Source: an uncultured Lachnospiraceae bacterium
GTDB taxonomy: Bacteria; Bacillota; Clostridia; Lachnospirales; Lachnospiraceae
Assembly: GCA_946611525.1 (NCBI GenBank)
Contig: CAMODS010000001.1
Coordinates: 1 to 29,974, forward strand
Direction of reading: 5' to 3'
DNA: 29,974 bases
Shown one piece after another: positions 9,730 to 22,645 of this stretch; the first letter of the stretch is position 1, and each line of letters starts with the position of its first letter. The notes below the pieces were generated by a model, which was not told where the DNA came from, did not search any database, and saw only the letters and a program-made list of their open reading frames with translations. Both the position numbers and the translations under genes were made by a program.

Positions 9730-12384
9730 ATGAAGGAGCTTGCAAAAACCTACGATCCGAAAGGGATGGAGGATCAGATTTATAAAAACTGGGAGGAAAA
9801 GGGATATTTCCACGCTGCTGTGGATCGCAGCAAAAAGCCCTTTACCATTGTGATGCCGCCCCCCAATATCACGGGACAGCTTCATATGGGTCACGCCCTG
9901 GACAATACCATGCAGGACATTTTGATCCGTTACAAGAGGATGCAGGGCTACAATGCTTTATGGCAGCCGGGTACGGATCATGCAGCCATCTCCACTGAGG
10001 TAAAGGTCATCGAGAACCTGAAGTCCCAGGGTATCAGCAAGGACGAGCTGGGCCGAGAGGGCTTTTTGGAAAAGTGCTGGGAGTGGCGCAGGGAATACGG
10101 TGGACGTATCGTGAAGCAGCTAAAAAAGATCGGTTCCTCAGCAGACTGGGAGCGCGAGCGCTTTACCATGGATGAGGGCTGCTCCGAGGCTGTTGAAGAG
10201 GTCTTTGTAAAGCTCTACGAAAAGGGCTATATATACAAGGGAGAAAAGATCATAAACTGGTGTCCCGTTTGTCAGACCTCCATTTCCGATGCAGAGGTTG
10301 AGTACGAGGACCAGCATGGTCATTTCTGGCATATCAACTATCCCGTGGCCGGCGAGGAGGGGCGCTTTGTGCAGATAGCTACCACCCGTCCTGAGACTAT
10401 GCTGGGCGATACTGCGTTGGCGGTCCATCCCGATGATGAGAGATACAAGGATATTGTCGGGAAAAATGTGATCCTGCCTTTGGTGGGTCGCGAGATCCCC
10501 ATTGTTGCAGACGAGTATGTTGACATGGAGTTTGGTACCGGAGTGGTAAAGATAACGCCGGCACATGACCCCAATGACTTTGAGGTGGGTAAGCGTCATG
10601 ACCTGCCCATCATAAATGTATTAAATGACGATGCCACCATCAATGAAAACGGCGGCAAGTATGCGGGCATGGATCGTTATGAGGCCAGAAAGCTTATCGT
10701 CTCAGAACTCGAGGAGCAGGGCCTTTTGGTAAAGGTGGAGGATCACGATCACAATGTAGGTACCCATGACCGCTGCCACACTACGGTAGAGCCCATGGTA
10801 AAGCCCCAGTGGTTTGTGGCTATGTCAGAACTGGCAAAGCCGGCTATCGCCGCTATTGAAAAGGGTGAGCTGAAGTTCGTGCCCGAGCGTTTTGACAAGA
10901 CATATCTTCACTGGCTTGAAAATATCCGTGACTGGTGCATCAGCCGCCAGCTTTGGTGGGGACACCGCATCCCTGCATATTACTGCGATGAATGTGGTGA
11001 GATAGTAGTGGCACGATCAAAGGATGCTCCCGACGTATGCCCCAAGTGTGGCTGCACTCACATGCACCAGGATGAGGACAATCTGGATACCTGGTTTTCT
11101 TCTGCGCTTTGGCCCTTCTCTACTCTGGGATGGCCCAAAAGCACTGAGGAGCTGGATTACTTCTATCCCACTGATGTACTGGTGACAGGCTACGATATCA
11201 TCTTTTTCTGGGTGGTTCGAATGGTATTTTCAGGCTATGAGCACACCGGGAAGTCACCCTTCCACACTGTATTGATACACGGACTGATCCGTGATGATCA
11301 GGGACGCAAGATGTCAAAGTCCCTGGGCAATGGTATCGATCCCCTTGAGGTCATTGACAAGTACGGTGCCGATGCTCTTAGGCTTACACTTATAACGGGT
11401 AATGCACCCGGAAACGATATGCGCTTCTACTGGGAGCGTGTTGAAAACAGCAGGAATTTTGCCAATAAGGTATGGAACGCATCCAGATTCATCATGATGC
11501 ACCTGGAAGCCTTTGACGGCAAGGATCCCGGACTGGATGCCCTGTATCCCGAGGACAGATGGATACTTTCGCTGGTCAACACCGTGGCCCGTGATGTGAC
11601 CGAGAACATGGACAAGTTTGAACTGGGTATAGCAGTCCAAAAAGTATATGATTTCATCTGGGACGAGTTCTGCGACTGGTATATCGAGATCGTAAAGCCC
11701 AGACTTTACGCAAAGGCAGAGGATCCGAAGAGTGCCAATGCAGCACTTTGGACACTTAATACGGTGCTTACAAATGCACTCAAGCTTTTGCATCCCTATA
11801 TGCCTTTTGTAACTGAGGCAATATTTACATCGCTTCATCCCGAGGAGGAGTCCATCATGATCTCCGACTGGCCCGTGTACAGAGAGGACTGGCACTTTGC
11901 GGCAGAGGAGAGCGAGCTTGATCACGCCAAGGATCTGGTGCGCGGCATGAGAAATCTCCGCACCGATATGGACGTGCCTCCTTCCAAAAAGGCAAAGCTT
12001 TTTGTTACATCAGCCAAGGCAGATGTAAGGGATATTTTTGAAAAGGTAAAACACACGTATATGGGACTCGCCGGTGCCACCGAGGTTGTGGTACAGGAGG
12101 GCGATGCGGGTATCCCCGGGGATGCGGTTTCCTTTGTAATACCGGATGCGGTGGTATATGTACCGCTTGAGGATCTGGTGGACAAGGCAAAGGAGACAGA
12201 GAGGCTTACAAAGGAGCGTGACAGACTGGCCAAGGAGCTGGCGAGATCAAAGGGTATGCTCTCAAATGAAAAGTTCCTCTCCAAGGCTCCCGCAGAAAAG
12301 GTTGCCGAGGAAAAGGAAAAGCAGAAAAAATACGAGTCAATGATGGCAGATGTAGAAGCAAGACTTGCAGCCATGAAAAACTAA
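9730..12384 (+). CDS. valS: Valine--tRNA ligase
   Basis: PPPNITGQLHMGH (HIGH motif), GTDHAAIST, editing domain ATTRPETMLGDTA/GTGVVKITPAHD, DWCISRQLWWGH, KMSKS, and a C-terminal coiled coil (FLSKAPAEKV). 884 aa. Confidence 0.98.
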   Translation: MKELAKTYDPKGMEDQIYKNWEEKGYFHAAVDRSKKPFTIVMPPPNITGQLHMGHALDNTMQDILIRYKRMQGYNALWQPGTDHAAISTEVKVIENLKSQGISKDELGREGFLEKCWEWRREYGGRIVKQLKKIGSSADWERERFTMDEGCSEAVEEVFVKLYEKGYIYKGEKIINWCPVCQTSISDAEVEYEDQHGHFWHINYPVAGEEGRFVQIATTRPETMLGDTALAVHPDDERYKDIVGKNVILPLVGREIPIVADEYVDMEFGTGVVKITPAHDPNDFEVGKRHDLPIINVLNDDATINENGGKYAGMDRYEARKLIVSELEEQGLLVKVEDHDHNVGTHDRCHTTVEPMVKPQWFVAMSELAKPAIAAIEKGELKFVPERFDKTYLHWLENIRDWCISRQLWWGHRIPAYYCDECGEIVVARSKDAPDVCPKCGCTHMHQDEDNLDTWFSSALWPFSTLGWPKSTEELDYFYPTDVLVTGYDIIFFWVVRMVFSGYEHTGKSPFHTVLIHGLIRDDQGRKMSKSLGNGIDPLEVIDKYGADALRLTLITGNAPGNDMRFYWERVENSRNFANKVWNASRFIMMHLEAFDGKDPGLDALYPEDRWILSLVNTVARDVTENMDKFELGIAVQKVYDFIWDEFCDWYIEIVKPRLYAKAEDPKSANAALWTLNTVLTNALKLLHPYMPFVTEAIFTSLHPEEESIMISDWPVYREDWHFAAEESELDHAKDLVRGMRNLRTDMDVPPSKKAKLFVTSAKADVRDIFEKVKHTYMGLAGATEVVVQEGDAGIPGDAVSFVIPDAVVYVPLEDLVDKAKETERLTKERDRLAKELARSKGMLSNEKFLSKAPAEKVAEEKEKQKKYESMMADVEARLAAMKN

Positions 12385-12401
12385 TGAGAGAGGTGGTAAT
12401 C

Positions 12402-13058
12402 ATGAAAGATGAAGAACTTTTAAAAATGTGTGACCACACTTTACTGAAGGTGGACTCCACCTGGGATCAGGTGAGACAGCTCATTGATGAGGGCATCGAG
12501 TACGGATGCGCATCCGTATGCATCCCGGCATCATTTGTGGCTGTGGCTTCAGAGTATATCCGCGATGCCGGATCTGAGCTTCCGGTATGCACGGTCATCG
12601 GCTTCCCCAACGGATACAGTACCACCGCCACAAAGTGTTTCGAGGCGCATGATGCTGTGGAAAAGGGTGCTTCGGAGATCGACATGGTGATCAATGTAGG
12701 CTGGGTAAAGGAAGGCAGATACGACTTTGTGCTTGACGAGATCAATGCGGTTAAGGAGGCCTGTGATGGCAGACTTTTAAAGGTTATCATCGAGACCTGC
12801 CTTCTTACAGATGAGGAGATAGTGGAGATGTGTAATGTGGTGTCCGAGTCGGATGCTGACTTTATAAAGACCTCCACCGGTTTCTCTACCGAGGGTGCAA
12901 CCTTCCATGCGGTGGAGCTTATGGCAAAGAACATGACAAACGGCAAAAAGATCAAGGCTGCAGGTGGCATCACCACCGTTGATGATGCCATAAAGTTTGC
13001 AGAACTTGGAGCAGATCGTCTGGGTACCAGCCGTCTGGTAAAGCTTTTGAAAGGATGA
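12402..13058 (+). CDS. deoC: Deoxyribose-phosphate aldolase
   Basis: CDHTLLK, VCTVIGFPNG, EIDMVIN, LKVIIET, FIKTSTG (Schiff-base Lys), IKAAGGI, RLGTS. Start set at ATG 12402 after GAGGTG; 12384 is an alternative. Confidence 0.96.
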   Translation: MKDEELLKMCDHTLLKVDSTWDQVRQLIDEGIEYGCASVCIPASFVAVASEYIRDAGSELPVCTVIGFPNGYSTTATKCFEAHDAVEKGASEIDMVINVGWVKEGRYDFVLDEINAVKEACDGRLLKVIIETCLLTDEEIVEMCNVVSESDADFIKTSTGFSTEGATFHAVELMAKNMTNGKKIKAAGGITTVDDAIKFAELGADRLGTSRLVKLLKG

Positions 13059-13474
13059 GTATGACTATAGATCAACCCACTATCGACCACATGGTGTTTT
13101 TGGCAAAGGGTATGACAGAGCGTTCCTATGCTCCCTATTCCCATTTCCATGTGGGTGCGGCGCTTTTATGTGACGACGGAGCCATCTATACCGGATGCAA
13201 TATTGAAAATGCATCCTATGGCGCCACCAACTGTGCTGAGCGCACGGCGGTCTTTAAGGCAGTAAGCGAAGGCTATCATCATTTTTCGGCCATAGCCATT
13301 GCCGGCGGTCCCGAGGGAGTCATCGGTGATGCCTGCCCTCCCTGCGGTATCTGCCGACAGGTGCTTTCGGAGTTTTGTGACTCCGATATGCCGGTTTATC
13401 TTGCAAAGGCTGACGGCTACGACGAGTACACCCTTGGCGACCTTTTGCCACTGACATTTGATCTTTTGGAGTAA
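13055..13474 (+). CDS. cdd: Cytidine deaminase (homotetrameric, three-Cys Zn type)
   Basis: YAPYSHFHVGAA, GCNIENASYG, CAERTA, PCGICRQVLSEF, LLPLTF. ATGA overlap with deoC. Confidence 0.96.
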   Translation: MSMTIDQPTIDHMVFLAKGMTERSYAPYSHFHVGAALLCDDGAIYTGCNIENASYGATNCAERTAVFKAVSEGYHHFSAIAIAGGPEGVIGDACPPCGICRQVLSEFCDSDMPVYLAKADGYDEYTLGDLLPLTFDLLE

Positions 13475-13478
13475 TTGT

Positions 13479-13622
13479 ATGATAGATTTTGAAGAGGAAT
13501 TAAAGAATTTCACAAAGAGCATCGAGGTGGAGGACGCTGAGGACGCCATCCAGAGCCGTGACCTGACAGACATGATCGACATCCTAAAAGAGATCACCAT
13601 GGAAAGGAAGCGTAAGGGATGA
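13479..13622 (+). CDS. 47-aa acidic microprotein (not in the ORF track)
   Basis: ATG 13479 to TGA 13622 encodes MIDFEEELKNFTKSIEVEDAEDAIQSRDLTDMIDILKEITMERKRKG. GGAG RBS at 13468-13471. It fills the cdd-TPR gap exactly, and its stop overlaps the next ATG (ATGA). Confidence 0.82.
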   Translation: MIDFEEELKNFTKSIEVEDAEDAIQSRDLTDMIDILKEITMERKRKG

Positions 13623-15025
13623 ACTGTTACGTATGCAACATGGTGGTGGACCGCGAGGATGTATGCCCTGTCTGCGGCGCTGACGTGAGGGCATACCGCC
13701 ACATTATAAGAGCTTGTGATGAGGCCTACAATGACGGACTGCGCCGTGCCAAAATGCGGGATCTGTCAGGAGCCATCGAGAGTTTGAACCGTGCGCTTCG
13801 CTTCAACAAGCGTCACACGGATTCCCGAAACCTTTTGGGACTTGTGTACTACGAGTTTGGTGAGCCGGTGCTGGCTATGAGGGAGTGGGTTATCAGTAAA
13901 AACTTTTCTCCGCAGAACAACCGTGCCGATCTCTATCTTGACAAGATAGCCCACGGCAGCGGTGCACTAAAGCAGTTGGATGTGACGGTGAAAAAGTACA
14001 ACCAGGCCATCGAGTACTGCCATCAGGGCAACCGGGATCTGGCAAAGATCCAGCTTAAAAAGGTTATCACCATGAACCCTAAGATGGTAAGAGCCCGACA
14101 GCTTTTGGCACTTTTGCATATGCAGGACGGGGAATGGGAGCAGGCCAGAAAGGAACTCCATGCGGCAGGCAAGATAGACATGTCAAATCCCCGCACCATA
14201 GAATACATGCAGGAGGTCCGCTCAGTCCTTAACAGTGACGAGAAAAAGAAAAAGAAGAAAAAGCAGCCCCGCCCCACATCAGTTGATTTCAGGGACAACG
14301 TCGAGACGGCGGCACTTCCCAGGCAGACGCTGGTGGAGACCATTGACAATATGAAGGGCGGCATTTTTAATATTTTGATCGGAGGCCTTATAGGGCTTTT
14401 GGTAACGGTATTTTTAGTGGTACCCACAGTCAGGCAGAATGCCAATTCCACTGCGGCCAACGCTTTGGTATCCGCCAATGAGGAGGCGGCAGGTAACGCC
14501 AGTGACATCGTGGCACTAAATGCCCAGATCGAAGATCTGAATAAAAGACTTGAAAAGTATGAGGGACAGTCCGACATCAAGGGCTCTTATGAGCAGCTGA
14601 TGAAGGCGCTGTCAATGATGAACTCCGAGGAGCCGGATGCCAGGGTTGCGGCAACCGAGCTTTCCAAGGTCAACAAGAGCCTTTTGGAGAATGAGGGCAA
14701 GAGGACGTACGATGCGCTTTCTTCCATAGTGGAGGGCGCAGTGGCGGATCAGTATTTCAATGAAGGCGAGGAGGCCTTCAACGAAAAGGACTATCCAAAA
14801 GCCATAGAGGCATACCGCGAGGTGATCAAGGCTGACAAGACGTATGGCGAAGGCCAGGCCATGTTTAATCTTGCCAGAAGCTACCAGTTGTCCGAGGACT
14901 TCGAAAAGGCGATGAAGTATTATAATAAGGTGATAGAGCTTTTCCCTGACAGGCGCATAGCGGGTCAGGCCAGATATCGTATCGGCCAGATCCCAGAGGA
15001 GTACAGAAATGTCGAGGAACAGTAA
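13619..15025 (+). CDS. Zinc-ribbon + TPR + single TM + coiled-coil + TPR protein
   Basis: N-terminal CYVC...CPVC. TPR-like repeats (YNDGLRRA, RNLLGLVYYEFGE, YNQAIEYC, RQLLALLHM), a K7 run, a hydrophobic segment GIFNILIGGLIGLLVTVFLVVP, a coiled coil, and C-terminal TPRs (YFNEGEEAF, AMFNLARSYQ). Confidence 0.85.
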   Translation: MNCYVCNMVVDREDVCPVCGADVRAYRHIIRACDEAYNDGLRRAKMRDLSGAIESLNRALRFNKRHTDSRNLLGLVYYEFGEPVLAMREWVISKNFSPQNNRADLYLDKIAHGSGALKQLDVTVKKYNQAIEYCHQGNRDLAKIQLKKVITMNPKMVRARQLLALLHMQDGEWEQARKELHAAGKIDMSNPRTIEYMQEVRSVLNSDEKKKKKKKQPRPTSVDFRDNVETAALPRQTLVETIDNMKGGIFNILIGGLIGLLVTVFLVVPTVRQNANSTAANALVSANEEAAGNASDIVALNAQIEDLNKRLEKYEGQSDIKGSYEQLMKALSMMNSEEPDARVAATELSKVNKSLLENEGKRTYDALSSIVEGAVADQYFNEGEEAFNEKDYPKAIEAYREVIKADKTYGEGQAMFNLARSYQLSEDFEKAMKYYNKVIELFPDRRIAGQARYRIGQIPEEYRNVEEQ

Positions 15026-17224
15026 ATGGAAAAGTATGATGTAACAGGAATGAGCTGCGCTGCGTGCGTGGCTCATGTTGAAAAAGCGGTAAGGACGGTT
15101 CCGGGAGTGGACAATGTGACGGTAAACCTCCTTACCAACTCCATGGTGGTGGAGGGCGATGCCGATGCCGGGAGGATATGCAGTGCCGTGGAAAAGGCGG
15201 GTTATCATGCAAGCCCGACGGGAAACTCCGGACAGAGTGATGATCCCGCAGACAGAGATCTTTCCGACAGGGAGACACCACAGATGATCAGACGGCTGAT
15301 ACTGTCAGTCGTTTTTTTGCTACCCCTCATGTATGTGTCCATGGGACATATGATGTGGGACTGGCCGCTGCCGGAGTTTTTACGTGACAATCACATTGGC
15401 ATGGGTATATATGAGATGCTTTTTGCCATTGTGGTGATGTTTATAAACCGCAAGTTTTTCATAAGTGGCATAAACGGAGCCATACACAAGGCTCCCAATA
15501 TGGACACCTTGGTGGCACTGGGATCGGGAGTTTCCTTTGGCTACAGCGTGGTGATCCTTTTTGCCATGACCTATGCAGCTTCGCAAAATGACAGTGAAGC
15601 GGTCATGGGATATATGCATGAGTTTTACTTTGAATCTGCAGCCATGATCCTTACGCTCATTACTGTGGGAAAGACCTTAGAGGCATATTCAAAGGGTCGG
15701 ACCACTGATGCCATAAAGGGGCTTTTGGAACTGGCTCCCAAAATGGCAACGGTAAGACGTGACGGCAAGGAAGTGGTCATACCGGCAGCTCAGGTAAAGG
15801 TGGGAGATGTTTTTATAGTCAGAGCCGGCGGAGCCTTCCCGGTGGACGGAGTGGTGACAGAGGGAAGCGGCAAAGTGGATGAGTCCGCCCTTACCGGTGA
15901 GAGCGTGGCAGTGGAAAAAACCATTGGCCGTGAGGTGTCGGTGGGAACCATCCTGCTTTCCGGCGAGCTTTGTTGTGAGGCTACCCGGGTCGGTAGTGAC
16001 ACCACCCTTTCAAAGATAGTGGAGCTGGTAAGTGATGCTGCAGCCACTAAGGCGCCTATCGCCAGGGTGGCAGATAAGGTGGCAAATGTATTTGTGCCGG
16101 TGGTTTTGGGTATCGCATTTATTACAGCCCTGGTATGGCTTATGATCGGTGCACCCATAGGTACTGCCTTATCCCATGCCATTACGGTTTTAGTGATAAG
16201 CTGCCCCTGCGCTCTTGGACTGGCGACTCCCGTGGCCATCATGGTTGGAGGCGGAGTGGGTGCAAAGCATGGCATCCTTTATAAAAACTCCGTATCACTT
16301 GAGCAGGCAGGCAGGGCGGATATCGTGGTGATGGATAAGACGGGAACCATTACACAGGGGCTTACGGATGCACCCGATGAGATCAGGCCGGAAAGCGCAG
16401 CTGCCATTAAGGAACTAAAGGATATGGGCTTTTACACCGTGATGCTTTCCGGAGACAAGGTGGATATAGCTGAAAGGATAGCAGCCCAGGCCGGGGTGGA
16501 CGAGGTCATAGCCGGTGTCCTTCCGGATGGCAAGGAGTCTGTGATAAGAGAACTCCAAAACCACGGTAAGGTCATAATGGTTGGTGACGGTATAAATGAC
16601 GCTCCCGCTCTAAAGCGTGCTGAGGTGGGCTTTGCCATAGGCGCCGGAAAGGATATTGCCATAGATGCGGCGGATGTGGTGCTGGTCAATTCAAAGCTTT
16701 CGGACGTGCCGGCTGCCATCAGGCTGTCAAAGTCGGTGCTGAAAAATATCAGGGAGAATCTTTTCTGGGCGTTTATCTACAATGTGATAGGAATACCCCT
16801 TGCGGCAGGAGTGTGGATACCCATTACCGGATGGTCGCTGACTCCCATGTTTGGCGCGGCGGCTATGAGTCTGTCCAGCTTTTGCGTGGTAATGAATGCC
16901 TTAAGGCTAAATCTTATTGACATATATTCACCGAAAAAGTTTTTGGGAAAGTCCCCTTTTAATGCCGGGGAAAAACTGTATAATAAAGAAAAAAACGGAG
17001 GAAAAGACGCTATGGAAAAGACACTCAGTATCGAAGGAATGATGTGCGAGAAATGTGAGGCTCACGTAAGAAAGGCATTGGAGGCTCTTGATGGAGTGGC
17101 CGAGGTAAAGGAAGTAAGCCATGATAAGAATGTTGCGGTGGTAAGCGTAAACGGTGATGTTTCCGATGATGCCTTTAAGGCAGCTGTAGAGGAAGCAGGC
17201 TATGATTTCAAGGGAGTAGCATAA
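15026..17224 (+). CDS. copA: Cu(+)-type P1B ATPase with N- and C-terminal HMA domains, lacking the nucleotide-binding N-domain
   Basis: GMSCAAC HMA, PNMDTL, YFES, TGES, ISCPCALGLATP, DKTGT, MLSGD, GDGINDAPAL, FIYN, AMSLSS, and C-terminal GMMCEKC. Only 31 aa separate DKTGT and MLSGD, and there is no (SE)HP motif. Confidence 0.9.
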   Translation: MEKYDVTGMSCAACVAHVEKAVRTVPGVDNVTVNLLTNSMVVEGDADAGRICSAVEKAGYHASPTGNSGQSDDPADRDLSDRETPQMIRRLILSVVFLLPLMYVSMGHMMWDWPLPEFLRDNHIGMGIYEMLFAIVVMFINRKFFISGINGAIHKAPNMDTLVALGSGVSFGYSVVILFAMTYAASQNDSEAVMGYMHEFYFESAAMILTLITVGKTLEAYSKGRTTDAIKGLLELAPKMATVRRDGKEVVIPAAQVKVGDVFIVRAGGAFPVDGVVTEGSGKVDESALTGESVAVEKTIGREVSVGTILLSGELCCEATRVGSDTTLSKIVELVSDAAATKAPIARVADKVANVFVPVVLGIAFITALVWLMIGAPIGTALSHAITVLVISCPCALGLATPVAIMVGGGVGAKHGILYKNSVSLEQAGRADIVVMDKTGTITQGLTDAPDEIRPESAAAIKELKDMGFYTVMLSGDKVDIAERIAAQAGVDEVIAGVLPDGKESVIRELQNHGKVIMVGDGINDAPALKRAEVGFAIGAGKDIAIDAADVVLVNSKLSDVPAAIRLSKSVLKNIRENLFWAFIYNVIGIPLAAGVWIPITGWSLTPMFGAAAMSLSSFCVVMNALRLNLIDIYSPKKFLGKSPFNAGEKLYNKEKNGGKDAMEKTLSIEGMMCEKCEAHVRKALEALDGVAEVKEVSHDKNVAVVSVNGDVSDDAFKAAVEEAGYDFKGVA

Positions 17225-18411
17225 TGATAAATCAAAAATACAAGGAAATGCTGAATGCAAAAAATATCATCCGCGTGCTGTCAGAGTATGCTACGGCCCG
17301 CGGTGAGGAGATAGGCTATGAGAATGTATTTGATTACAGTCTCGGCAATCCTTCGGTGCCCTGTGCAGATGACTACACCAGGGCGGTGATAGATCTTCAC
17401 GAGCACGAGGATCCCATGGCCATCCACGGCTACAGCCCTTCTTTAGGCAATACTTCGGTGAGGGAAGCTGTGGCTGCATCCCTTAAAAAAAGATTTGGAC
17501 TGCCCTATGAGACAAAGCATATCTTTATGACATCAGGCGCTGCCGGTGCAATCGCCCATGCAGTTCGTGCAGTGACTGTCCCGGGTGACGAGGTGATCAC
17601 CTTTGCCCCCTTTTTTCCGGAGTACAATCCTTATGTAAATGAGACCGGCGCCATACTTAAGGTGGTGCCTCCCCGCACAGAGGACTTCCAGATCAACTTC
17701 ACCGAGTTTGAAAAGATGATGAACGAAAAAGTTCAGGCCGTCCTCATAAACTCGCCCAACAATCCCAGCGGCGTGGTCTACTCAGAGGAAACTCTTGAGC
17801 GCCTTTCCATGTATTTGGAAACCTGTGAGAAAAAGTACGGTCATGAGATCTTTTTGATCAGTGACGAGCCGTACCGTGAGATAGTGTTTGACGGTGCCAC
17901 CGTTCCCTATCCTGCAAAGTATTACAAAAATACCATCACCTGCTACTCCTTCTCGAAGAGCCTTTCTCTTCCCGGAGAGCGTATCGGATACGTGGCAGTA
18001 AACCCGGCAGCGAAGGATGCGGATATCATAGCATTAATGTGTGGACAGATAAGCAGAGGCATCGGCCATAACTGTCCCTCATCCACACCTCAGCTTGCGG
18101 TGTCGAGAGTTTTGGATCAGACCAGTGATCTTAGCGTTTACGAGACCAACCGCAACATCCTTTACAAGGAGCTTGTGGATCTCGGCTTTACAGTTGTAAA
18201 GCCCGGAGGCACCTTCTACATCTTCCCCAAGGCGCTTGAGGAGGATTCGGTGGCCTTCTGCAACAAGGCGAAAAACTACGACCTCATCCTCGTGCCTGCC
18301 GACGGCTTTGGGGCACCGGGGTACTTCCGTATGGCCTACTGCATCGACACCGAAAAAGTGGAGCGCTCCCTACCCGCACTCCGCAAGTTCGTGAATACTG
18401 AATACCACTAA
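17224..18411 (+). CDS. PLP-dependent aminotransferase class I/II (aspartate aminotransferase-like)
   Basis: YSLGNP, MTSGAAGA, INSPNNPSG, LISDEPY, SFSKSLSLPGERIGY (PLP Lys), FRMAY. TAATG overlap with copA. Confidence 0.93.
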   Translation: MINQKYKEMLNAKNIIRVLSEYATARGEEIGYENVFDYSLGNPSVPCADDYTRAVIDLHEHEDPMAIHGYSPSLGNTSVREAVAASLKKRFGLPYETKHIFMTSGAAGAIAHAVRAVTVPGDEVITFAPFFPEYNPYVNETGAILKVVPPRTEDFQINFTEFEKMMNEKVQAVLINSPNNPSGVVYSEETLERLSMYLETCEKKYGHEIFLISDEPYREIVFDGATVPYPAKYYKNTITCYSFSKSLSLPGERIGYVAVNPAAKDADIIALMCGQISRGIGHNCPSSTPQLAVSRVLDQTSDLSVYETNRNILYKELVDLGFTVVKPGGTFYIFPKALEEDSVAFCNKAKNYDLILVPADGFGAPGYFRMAYCIDTEKVERSLPALRKFVNTEYH

Positions 18412-20849: not shown

Positions 20850-21503
20850 ATGAAAAAGAAAAAATATGCTCTTACTTCCATTATATCTTTTGCACTTTTT
20901 GTGTTGCTTATCATCCTTCTTAAAACAGTGGATGTGGCGGCGGTGGGACCGGATGGGACATCGGTTGGTTTTTCTCATCTCAATGTATCCTTCCATGAGA
21001 CATTTCCTTTGAATATGACCATATACAAGCTGACCGAGATACTGGGATACCTGGCGCTTTTGGTGGCGGCAGCTTTTGCCCTCCTTGGTTTTTTACAGCT
21101 TATAAGGACAAAGAGCCTGGACGGGGTGGACAGACAGATCTATTGCCTGGCGGGACTATATGTTGTGATGGGCATCCTTTATGTCTTATTTGAAAAGCTG
21201 ATCATAAACTACCGCCCTGAGATCCTACCGGGAGAGGCTGCAGTGGAGGCATCATTCCCTTCGTCACATACCATGCTGGCCTGCGTTATCTTTGGGAGCG
21301 CATACACCATGCTTGGCTTTTATATGGAAAAAAACACGGCCAGACTGGGGCTTCAGATCGCATTGGATATACTGATATTCTTTACGGTGTTTGGCAGACT
21401 GATCTGCGGTGTTCACTGGTTTACCGATATTCTGGGAGGGCTTTTCATAAGTACTGCCCTGGTATCACTCTTTAACTTTTTTGTCACTGAGGACGAGGAA
21501 TGA
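20850..21503 (+). CDS. PAP2 superfamily membrane phosphatase
   Basis: Motifs K.IINYRP, SFPSSHT and RLICGVHWFTD with several TM helices. Start at ATG 20850 after AGGAG. Confidence 0.9.
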   Translation: MKKKKYALTSIISFALFVLLIILLKTVDVAAVGPDGTSVGFSHLNVSFHETFPLNMTIYKLTEILGYLALLVAAAFALLGFLQLIRTKSLDGVDRQIYCLAGLYVVMGILYVLFEKLIINYRPEILPGEAAVEASFPSSHTMLACVIFGSAYTMLGFYMEKNTARLGLQIALDILIFFTVFGRLICGVHWFTDILGGLFISTALVSLFNFFVTEDEE

Positions 21504-22645
21504 AAAAGAGATATCTTATTTTCACATTGGCAGTCCTTTTAGTCATGGGCCTGCTGTCAGGGTGCACGCGCACTGTGACCGAAGATGAGGAGGTCGTCGT
21601 GGAGGAGACCCATGAGCCTGTTGCCAAAATAGGAGTGGCACTGTGGAGTTCCACGGATGTGCTGGGATCCAGATGCAGAGAGGTGATCCTTGACGCGGCA
21701 GAGGCACTTGATGTAGAGGTGGAGTTTACAGACCACGGTTTTTCCCATCAGGACGAGGCGCTGGCAGTAAGGCAGCTTATTGATGACGGTTGTCAGGGTA
21801 TAGTGCTTTGCAATTCCTCGGATGAGGAGCTGGAGGGCATCATAAAAGACTGCGATGCGTCCGGCACCTATCTGGCACAGTGCTTTCGTTCAATAAACAG
21901 GGATGCCCACCCCGGTGTATATGCCCTTGCAGAGGCGTCACCCTGCTATGTGGGATGTGTACATGAAAACGAGATAGAAAACGGTAGGAATACAGCTCAG
22001 ATGATCATCAATCTCGGAAAAAGAAGGATAGGTGTTTTGGGCTGGATGCCGGGTGATACGGCATGGGAATTTAGGATGGAGGGGTATTCCATTGCGGTGG
22101 AAGGAGCCAACAGGATAAACCGTGACAAGCCGGTGATCCTTTTGGATCCGGTATACGCAGGTATTACCTATGAGGGTGGCTACAGGGCTGTTGATGAGTT
22201 GATAAAGCGCGAGCCTGCCGTGGATGCTCTCATAGTTGCGGGAGGCGGCGGCGAGCCTTTGGTGGGAGCCATGGCTGCCATTTCAGACAACGGACTTGAC
22301 CGCAGGATAGCTGTCGTGGCCACTGATTTTGTGGACGACCTCGATGAAAGAATGAAAAGCGGTACCATGGTGGGAGCATCAGGTGGTACCCACTGTGACA
22401 GTCTTCTTGCTTTTATGATGGTGTACAATGCCGTCATGGAGACCGAAGGCTATACCGATCTTTCCGGTACCGCAAATGAGATTATATTTCCGTATCTCTA
22501 CGCCATTTCACCCCAGGATTATGCTGATTTTGAAAAGAACTTTTTTGATGTGAGCCCATACACCGGGGAGGAGTTTATAGAGCTTTCCGGGCTTTCCGTG
22601 GATGGACTCATGGAGGAAGCATCGGGCTTCAAGAAAAAATGGTAG
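21500..22645 (+). CDS. Sugar-type substrate-binding lipoprotein (periplasmic binding protein type I), probably sensory
   Basis: Signal peptide with lipobox LSGC (C22), then KIGVALWS, GIVLCNS, ENEIENG, VVATDF. No permease or ATPase is adjacent; the kinase gene follows after a 1-nt gap. Confidence 0.82.
   Translation: MKKRYLIFTLAVLLVMGLLSGCTRTVTEDEEVVVEETHEPVAKIGVALWSSTDVLGSRCREVILDAAEALDVEVEFTDHGFSHQDEALAVRQLIDDGCQGIVLCNSSDEELEGIIKDCDASGTYLAQCFRSINRDAHPGVYALAEASPCYVGCVHENEIENGRNTAQMIINLGKRRIGVLGWMPGDTAWEFRMEGYSIAVEGANRINRDKPVILLDPVYAGITYEGGYRAVDELIKREPAVDALIVAGGGGEPLVGAMAAISDNGLDRRIAVVATDFVDDLDERMKSGTMVGASGGTHCDSLLAFMMVYNAVMETEGYTDLSGTANEIIFPYLYAISPQDYADFEKNFFDVSPYTGEEFIELSGLSVDGLMEEASGFKKKW

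Follow-up and report, generated by a model that had tools for sequence, protein, structure and literature searches.

The stretch of DNA studied here (the window: all 29,974 nucleotides from position 1 to 29,974 of contig CAMODS010000001.1, forward strand, in assembly GCA_946611525.1) comes from an uncultured Lachnospiraceae bacterium. At 15026-17224 on its forward strand we identified a gene for a CopA-type P1B-1 ATPase that lacks the entire nucleotide-binding (N) domain; we refer to such proteins as capless. On balance, we consider it probable that the gene encodes a genuine, selectively maintained Cu(I) ATPase from which the N domain was deleted and which still operates as a phospho-cycling Cu(I) pump without that domain.

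The gene is a single intact open reading frame (ORF) of 732 amino acids. Exactly 31 residues separate DKTGT (437-441) from MLSGD (473-477), in the order DKTGT-ITQG-LTDAP-DEIRPES...MLSGD, and the five residues LTDAP stand at the site where relatives hold about 124 (hinge plus N domain). Relative to the closest full-length ortholog (P0121), the net loss amounts to 119 residues, the distance from DKTGT to D-x-I-K/R-P-D/E-S being 14 residues versus 133. SEHP and any other N-domain motif are absent, including the GxG that accompanies SEHP in the P-domain insertion of P1B-1 ATPases. Against L. pneumophila CopA (3rfu), a first alignment ends at chain residue 435 and a second picks up near 550, leaving chain residues 436 to ~547 without a counterpart, and the Pfam Hydrolase (HAD) profile is matched from position 94 onward only. 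The original prediction, made from the letters of the DNA, had stated that the N domain is cleanly missing, with 31 residues between DKTGT and MLSGD and no (SE)HP motif; the ORF, Pfam, the 3rfu alignment and the 119-residue loss all confirm the absence of the domain, and the count proved exact. Its statement that everything else is intact holds for all the motifs that it listed, but TGDN reads SGDK, and several other P-domain positions with a conservation of at least 97% in full-length relatives have changed.

The remaining parts of the protein are those of a copper pump. Pfam recognizes two HMA domains, an E1-E2 ATPase region (A domain plus membrane part) and a partial HAD hydrolase; the A domain is matched by PF00122 over residues 235-415 (4e-56) and contains TGES at 290-293. 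The Cu(I) ligand motifs CPC (M4), YN (M5) and MxxSS (M6) are all present and invariant in the alignment. The motifs for phosphorylation and Mg2+ binding are present as well, namely DKTGT, SGD at 475-477 (with Ser in place of Thr), K503 and GDGIND at 520-525. A sequence search against the Protein Data Bank (PDB) returned CopA structures with E-values of 1e-115 to 1e-122. The protein also exceeds the NCBIfam cut-offs of TIGR01511 (498.5 bits versus 397) and TIGR01525 (495.5 versus 346.25), each in two stretches. Because these curated copper-ATPase profiles are passed, automatic annotation would not flag the loss of the N domain.

A structural model made with AlphaFold2 (AF2) has a mean predicted local distance difference test (pLDDT) score of 77. 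In this model the P domain is predicted to retain its Rossmann fold of alternating strands and helices, and the site of N-domain insertion is occupied by a short, low-confidence loop (447-449). Foldseek matched the modelled fold to A. fulgidus CopA (AfCopA, 7r0g; TMq 0.68, TMt 0.76, root-mean-square deviation 3.7 Å) and to ATP7B (7xuk; TMq 0.74).

Comparison with related genomes indicates that the deletion is in-frame and hinge-to-hinge and that it arose in an ancestor shared by two Lachnospiraceae lineages of the rumen. In all 40 related species genomes, including eight of eight congeners, the CopA match is split around the missing domain, within open frames of 745-997 amino acids. The nearest full-length ortholog (genome G008) has 867 amino acids, 74% identity and the same upstream TPR gene (85% identity); more distant relatives have the usual csoR-copA module. 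In G008 the TPR gene and copA are separated by a spacer of ~100 nt with a terminator-like hairpin and a TTGACA-16-TAAAAT promoter (contig L007, 2796-2875). This spacer is gone in both capless lineages: in the second (contig L002) the gap measures 2 nt, and in the window the TPR stop abuts the copA start. The loss of the spacer and this abutment indicate that the capless lineage underwent two deletions, of the N domain and of the spacer, and that the pump gene now appears to be read within the upstream operon. The copA stop in turn overlaps the start of an aminotransferase gene (17222-17226). We also asked whether the P-domain segment was acquired from a different capless gene. Residues 451-495 best match a full-length relative (62%; best capless match, 56%), so there is no sign of gene conversion and this origin was rejected.

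The second lineage shows that the capless protein has been kept under selection. Its protein (P0003) has the same length, the same deletion and junction and 93% amino-acid identity, and it lies in the same gene order (ValRS, DeoC, a 47-amino-acid ORF, TPR protein, copA, aminotransferase and GT2). For the whole of copA, the ratio of non-synonymous to synonymous divergence (dN/dS) between window and L002 is 0.079 at dS 0.60 (Nei-Gojobori), within the range of the neighbouring long ORFs (0.025-0.18). It is 0.04 in the P-domain remnant (dS 0.53) and 0.045 in the second P-domain segment (amino acids 448-575), and there are no amino-acid changes at all between the capless lineages in the first P-domain segment (amino acids 406-447) or in M5-M6. 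The 19 junction codons differ by seven synonymous and zero non-synonymous changes. Since all divergence between the two lineages postdates the deletion, the capless protein has long been under constraint.

We observed separately that the flanking genes (dS 1.07-1.29) have diverged about twice as far at synonymous sites as copA (0.60) and the aminotransferase gene (0.52), which occupy window positions 15026-18411 and L002 positions 10001-13386. Recombination after the two lineages split may have carried the copA-aminotransferase block from one to the other; if so, the capless allele would have spread rather than been simply inherited.

We next report on the occurrence of capless pumps in other bacteria. 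A junction-spanning query of 56 amino acids, searched against one genome per genus for 400 genera of the family, gave mostly spurious alignments to the N-domain end of full-length CopAs, and only genome G340 proved truly capless. The relatives of the G340 protein fall into three further types, with junctions that differ from that of the window protein (type A: 732 amino acids, 9 residues from DKTGT to D-x-I-K/R-x-D/E-S, reading ITQG-LTDAP, and SGDK). Over the same interval, type B (728-777 amino acids; 28 clusters, to 71% identity) has 18 residues and SGDR, type C (720 amino acids) has 15 and TGDN, and type D (727 amino acids) has 23 and TGDK. In the IQ-TREE phylogeny, type A groups with the full-length proteins P0121 and P0005 (support 99) within a clade of ten (support 100), C and D are sister types in a second full-length clade (support 97), and type B forms a long separate branch. 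Forcing all capless proteins into a single clade costs 188 log-likelihood units (approximately unbiased (AU) test, p = 0.002) and joining A with C and D gives p = 0.0002, for a capless group that was defined after the tree had been seen. These phylogenies indicate at least three independent losses of the N domain among the CopAs of Clostridia.

A wider search used a DNA pattern encoding DKTGT, 34-44 codons, GD, 40-47 codons and GDGxND, with Asp as the GAT codon only. The pattern matches the window once, where none is expected by chance. In species-representative genomes it matched 91 stretches, 80 of which were returned as loci (L038-L117) and yielded 79 ORFs. Among these 80 of 91 stretches there are at least 62 genuine capless P1B genes outside the window, in 22 clusters at 55% identity or more. 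The 17 ORFs excluded encode CadA-like pumps whose N domain is normal but contains an additional DKTGT. These ATPases (L046, L062, L110 and 14 further loci) have ~620-720 amino acids and carry the second, exact DKTGT ~96 residues before GDGIND, which mimics capless spacing in motif scans.

Judged by record titles, the capless genes span at least five phyla, and nearly all come from gut or rumen samples. Those of Bacillota belong to Lachnospiraceae, Oscillospiraceae/Ruminococcaceae, Acutalibacteraceae, Acidaminococcaceae, Anaerovoracaceae and Mogibacterium, and those of Bacteroidota to Prevotella (including the isolates P5-50 and tc2-28), Muribaculaceae and Bacteroidaceae; others are from Hallerella, Treponemataceae, Coriobacteriia, Actinomycetes, Candidatus Ancillula and one metagenome-assembled genome (MAG) of Alphaproteobacteria. 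A single cluster at 55% identity or more (L039, L042, L045, L056, L075, L083, L092, L098 and L100) extends across Pseudobutyrivibrio, Acutalibacteraceae, Lachnospiraceae, Hallerella (Fibrobacterota), Prevotellaceae and Anaerotignum, and this spread over distant taxa suggests horizontal transfer of the capless pump gene among rumen and gut bacteria. The ESM Atlas pointed to Bacteroidota clusters of 639 amino acids, and the DNA pattern gave capless Bacteroidota genes of 611-692 amino acids. AlphaFold DB clusters returned full-length representatives only. A junction peptide of 40 amino acids, too short a query to gauge distribution, had one marginal match among 1.84 billion protein representatives. 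That protein (P0122, 1154 amino acids) aligns in three distinct segments to the half of the query on the DKTGT side.

Provisionally, we define capless P1B ATPases as a polyphyletic class with fewer than 100 residues between DKTGT and GDGxND, no SxHP and the other P1B-1 motifs retained; the window protein, with a spacing of 83 residues, fits this definition. The original prediction had offered two explanations, a recent in-frame deletion or a previously unrecognized capless subtype, and each stands in part. The deletion is in-frame, hinge-to-hinge and derived within the genus, but it is not a recent, decaying lesion, given the second lineage and a dN/dS of 0.08. Capless P1B ATPases do form a widespread class for which we found no published description, but they are polyphyletic and not one lineage.

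Across the capless lineages the catalytic and copper-binding residues have been retained, and a few neighbouring positions have changed repeatedly. In 38 aligned capless and full-length proteins, D437, K438, T439, G440, T441, G476, D477, K503 and G520-D525 are invariant, as are G291-E292-S293, C393-P394-C395, Y585-N586, M614, S617 and S618. Among the 62 capless genes, in which DKTGT, GD and GDGxND were required by the search pattern, CPC is found in 61 and TGE in 57, the remainder being truncated ORFs. Five sites, each at least 95% conserved in 205 full-length relatives, have changed in more than one type: T475S in A and B; N478K/R in A, B and D (K or R at 478 occurs in 0 of the 205); T481I/V in A, B and C; K454R in A, C and D; and P295A/L, just past TGES, in A and B. 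SGD is found in 53 of the 62 genes, and GD followed by K or R also in 53. The alignments thus indicate that most capless lineages converge from TGDN to SGD(K/R) and that the window lineage (SGDK at 475-478) did so independently. Residues 451-495 are the part of the P domain most diverged from full-length kin (the flanks are ~86% identical) and are nearly frozen between the two capless lineages, a pattern that fits a burst of adjustment followed by constraint.

Given this selection and the retention of every residue for the formation and hydrolysis of the aspartyl phosphate and for Cu(I) binding, we infer that the protein still cycles. It would keep a Post-Albers phosphoenzyme cycle and export Cu(I), with Asp437 phosphorylated in the absence of a dedicated nucleotide pocket. 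The donor would most plausibly be a small acyl phosphate such as acetyl phosphate, produced by Pta and AckA in this fermenter; both ackA and pta are present in the window genome. Alternatively, and equally compatible with the data, ATP or pyrophosphate (PPi) might dock directly, at low affinity, at the open P-domain site. Whichever of these anionic donors is used, the basic residue newly gained after GD may assist in its binding.

The P domain adopts a Rossmann fold of the HAD type, in which the nucleophile is an Asp, accompanied by a Ser/Thr, a Lys and an acidic motif for Mg2+, and acetyl phosphate phosphorylates both SERCA and CheY-like receiver domains. The taxa with capless pumps are acetate-forming anaerobes. 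Acetyl phosphate has also been described as a phosphorylating substrate of Na,K-ATPase (PMC2217063). We put forward, tentatively and as a possibility for which the odds are not in favour, that capless CopAs are P-type pumps but not ATPases: an acyl phosphate from fermentation, acetyl or butyryl phosphate, would phosphorylate Asp437 directly at an uncapped HAD site, aided by the convergently acquired Lys/Arg after GD, and copper export in gut and rumen anaerobes would draw on the acetyl-phosphate pool rather than on ATP.

Several observations weigh against a phospho-cycling pump. The retained motifs would also be compatible with a non-transport role that uses the phosphate/Mg site, and the role of Lys478 is a matter of conjecture. 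The concentration of conserved-position changes in the P domain on the capless stem (12 of 18, versus three of nine on the sister branch) is a trend only (Fisher p = 0.12-0.13), and the AU test was applied to a grouping chosen after the fact. One Pseudobutyrivibrio genome (G427) has a capless and a full-length CopA together, and the window genome, at 54% completeness, may still contain another, full-length copA or an N domain encoded on its own. RNA is represented by one contig of 236 nt over the last 185 nt of the gene, from a bovine metatranscriptome, which possibly reflects DNA carry-over and is too little for transcription to be claimed.

Among the alternatives, the one that survives best is that the protein has a non-pumping job: it might sense or buffer Cu(I), act as a gated facilitator or serve as a scaffold, and its P domain would be a structural element or would do no more than equilibrate with inorganic phosphate (backdoor E2P), with no net input of energy. 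The absence of the canonical ATP-binding domain speaks for such a role, as do the loss of the promoter spacer and the position of the gene in an unrelated operon, between TPR and aminotransferase genes and with no csoR nearby; HMA domains and membrane copper sites would in any case bind metal. Nevertheless, we regard this role as unlikely. DKTGT, TGES and the metal sites are invariant across independent capless lineages, and to our knowledge TGES has no role beyond hydrolysing the aspartyl phosphate (E2P). The convergent SGDK/R beside the phosphorylation site looks like catalytic tuning rather than loss. Also, the capless protein is the only CopA-like pump found in most of the capless genomes examined.

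The copper-pump repertoire of these genomes bears on the last point. In the window genome, which is 54% complete, we found no csoR, no further HMA protein and no second P-type ATPase, nor a stand-alone N-domain ORF when the N domain of the ortholog was used as the query. Congeners have one CopA-like match each, and its ortholog in the window genome is the capless one. By motif reading, the capless gene of G340 (100% complete) is the only P1B-1-type ATPase there; of its other P-type genes, one encodes a CadA-like CPC pump that has its N domain, and the rest belong to two more distant types. Searches of Prevotella sp. P5-50, Prevotella sp. tc2-28, one Pseudobutyrivibrio MAG and one Treponemataceae genome likewise gave no additional CopA-like match bearing an HMA domain.

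ATP could still be the fuel if an N domain were supplied in trans, by a separate small protein or by another P-type ATPase in a hetero-oligomer. Every capless genome inspected has another P1B ATPase, of ~630-670 amino acids, that bears an N domain, and a dimeric P1B ATPase structure has been published (PMC13677743). We consider this arrangement quite improbable, as the search for a stand-alone N domain in the partial window genome was negative, no partner gene is conserved in the neighbourhood (types A and B lie in unrelated gene contexts), and neither the short junction loop nor the convergent SGDK/R would suggest a docking surface.

The possibility that the gene is a functionless relic undergoing slow pseudogenization has very little probability in our view. 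A P-type ATPase deprived of an essential domain would as a rule be inactive, and conserved positions have changed 18 times on the capless stem and nine times on the sister branch (12 and three times within the P domain). Yet the constraint described above (after the deletion, dN/dS 0.08 at dS 0.60 for the whole gene and 0.04 for what remains of the P domain) gives no indication of relaxation, and no stops or frameshifts occur in six assemblies or in the second lineage. The same architecture persists elsewhere at deeper divergence (type B to 71% identity; 22 clusters overall). On these sequence comparisons, a relic is strongly disfavoured.

The short form is also present in DNA assembled independently. 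An identical protein is encoded on contigs of ERZ28612953, ERZ1756080 (also in NCBI) and SRR873599 (Logan), and a variant with one substitution in ERZ12302820; a stretch of 58 nt around the junction is identical in those four assemblies (L003-L006). An 889-nt Logan contig from an unrelated sheep run of 2024 (X2) covers 15610-16498 and spans the junction with seven mismatches and zero gaps, and word searches located the gene in gut metagenomes, those of sheep among them, generated by more than ten studies (2013-2025). An assembly or binning artefact, in the form of a collapsed or chimeric contig, can be set aside as having a negligible chance: the source is a fragmented MAG of 188 contigs, and two low-coverage contigs of run X3 abut at 16354/16355, just short of the junction (read as a coverage break), but the same junction was recovered by different pipelines in four other assemblies, is crossed by the contig of another study and recurs in a diverged ortholog with synonymous differences only.

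Table 1. Features of the capless copA gene and its upstream boundary in the window
Feature	Position	Strand	Evidence
Complete ORF, N-domain-less CopA-type P1B-1 ATPase, 732 aa	15026..17224	+	Pfam, NCBIfam, PDB alignment, AF2 model
TPR stop directly next to copA start (TAA ATG)	15023..15028	+	Compared with full-length ortholog locus
N-terminal HMA domain, CAAC aa 11-14 (nt 15056-15067)	15026..15220	+	PF00403
TGES of A domain, aa 290-293	15893..15904	+	G291/E292/S293 invariant, T290 nearly so, in 38 sequences
CPC transmembrane Cu(I) site, M4, aa 393-395	16202..16210	+	Invariant in alignment
DKTGT phosphorylation motif, aa 437-441	16334..16348	+	Invariant in alignment
Deletion junction LTDAP, aa 446-450	16361..16375	+	Alignment to orthologs
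SGDK, altered TGDN (T475S, N478K)	16448..16459	+	Comparison with full-length relatives
LPDGK aa 499-503, catalytic Lys503	16520..16534	+	P500 and K503 invariant
GDGINDAPAL Mg2+/phosphate-binding motif, aa 520-529	16583..16612	+	Alignment
YN of M5, Cu(I) site, aa 585-586	16778..16783	+	Invariant
MSLSS (MxxSS) of M6, Cu(I) site, aa 614-618	16865..16879	+	Alignment
C-terminal HMA domain, CEKC aa 674-677 (nt 17045-17056)	17012..17221	+	Pfam

Two further observations concern the neighbouring genes. The 47-amino-acid ORF upstream of the TPR gene (13479-13622) has 100% protein identity between the two lineages at a saturated dS of ~2.3 (dN/dS 0.004). Because its protein is unchanged despite this synonymous divergence, it is almost certainly a real, strongly constrained microprotein gene. 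A gene for a periplasmic binding protein (~21500-22640) has 63% amino-acid identity between the lineages (dN/dS 0.18), compared with 84-98% for its neighbours.

A 2020 review attributes N, P and A domains to all P1B ATPases, assigns the delivery of ATP in P-type ATPases to the N domain, and recognizes subgroups P1B-1 to P1B-7 by substrate, none of them N-domain-less (PMC7558416). A full-text literature search, whose coverage excludes most subscription journals, returned no description of an N-domain-less P-type ATPase, and within this coverage the short form is not an already described subfamily. It appears that the N domain has been deleted many times over in the evolution of bacteria of the gut and rumen, each time with the catalytic machinery kept by selection and the same adjustments made near the phosphorylation site. 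This raises the question of how a P-type transport cycle might run in the absence of a nucleotide-binding domain, and on which fuel. The 732-amino-acid capless protein and its 74%-identical, syntenic full-length ortholog offer a natural pair for comparison, and the special value of the window gene lies in its young, independent origin, this ortholog and the convergent SGDK. For annotation, capless genes pass the curated copper-ATPase profiles and are labelled as ordinary pumps by genome pipelines.

The window protein resembles CopA-type P1B-1 ATPases (A. fulgidus 7r0g/3j09, L. pneumophila 3rfu/4bbj and ATP7B 7xuk; TIGR01511/TIGR01525) in its membrane core with CPC, YN and MxxSS, its TGES-bearing A domain, the catalytic residues of its P domain and its HMA domains, and, within its genus, the syntenic ortholog is a full-length CopA of the usual kind. 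It differs from them by the lack of the ~119-residue N domain, with its SEHP and GxG loop, and by the change from TGDN to SGDK. With the other capless CopA-like proteins, both those of Clostridia (e.g. P0123, P0155 and P0196) and those of loci L038-L117, it shares a DKTGT followed by [S/T]GD within ~35-50 residues, the catalytic and copper-site motifs, in most cases SGD followed by K/R, and the gut or rumen habitat. Its origin is independent of theirs, the window protein being nested among full-length proteins, its junction peptide (LTDAP) is different and shorter, and its lineage is young, with only two known species-level members. At a greater distance, and as a functional analogy only, it may be compared with capless (C0) HAD enzymes, whose active site, like that of a P domain without its cap (the N domain), would be open, and with CheY-like receiver domains, in which a comparable site takes phosphate from acetyl phosphate. 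Here, however, the fold sits in a full ion-pump scaffold with a TGES-containing A domain, and the homology that we propose is at the superfamily level only.

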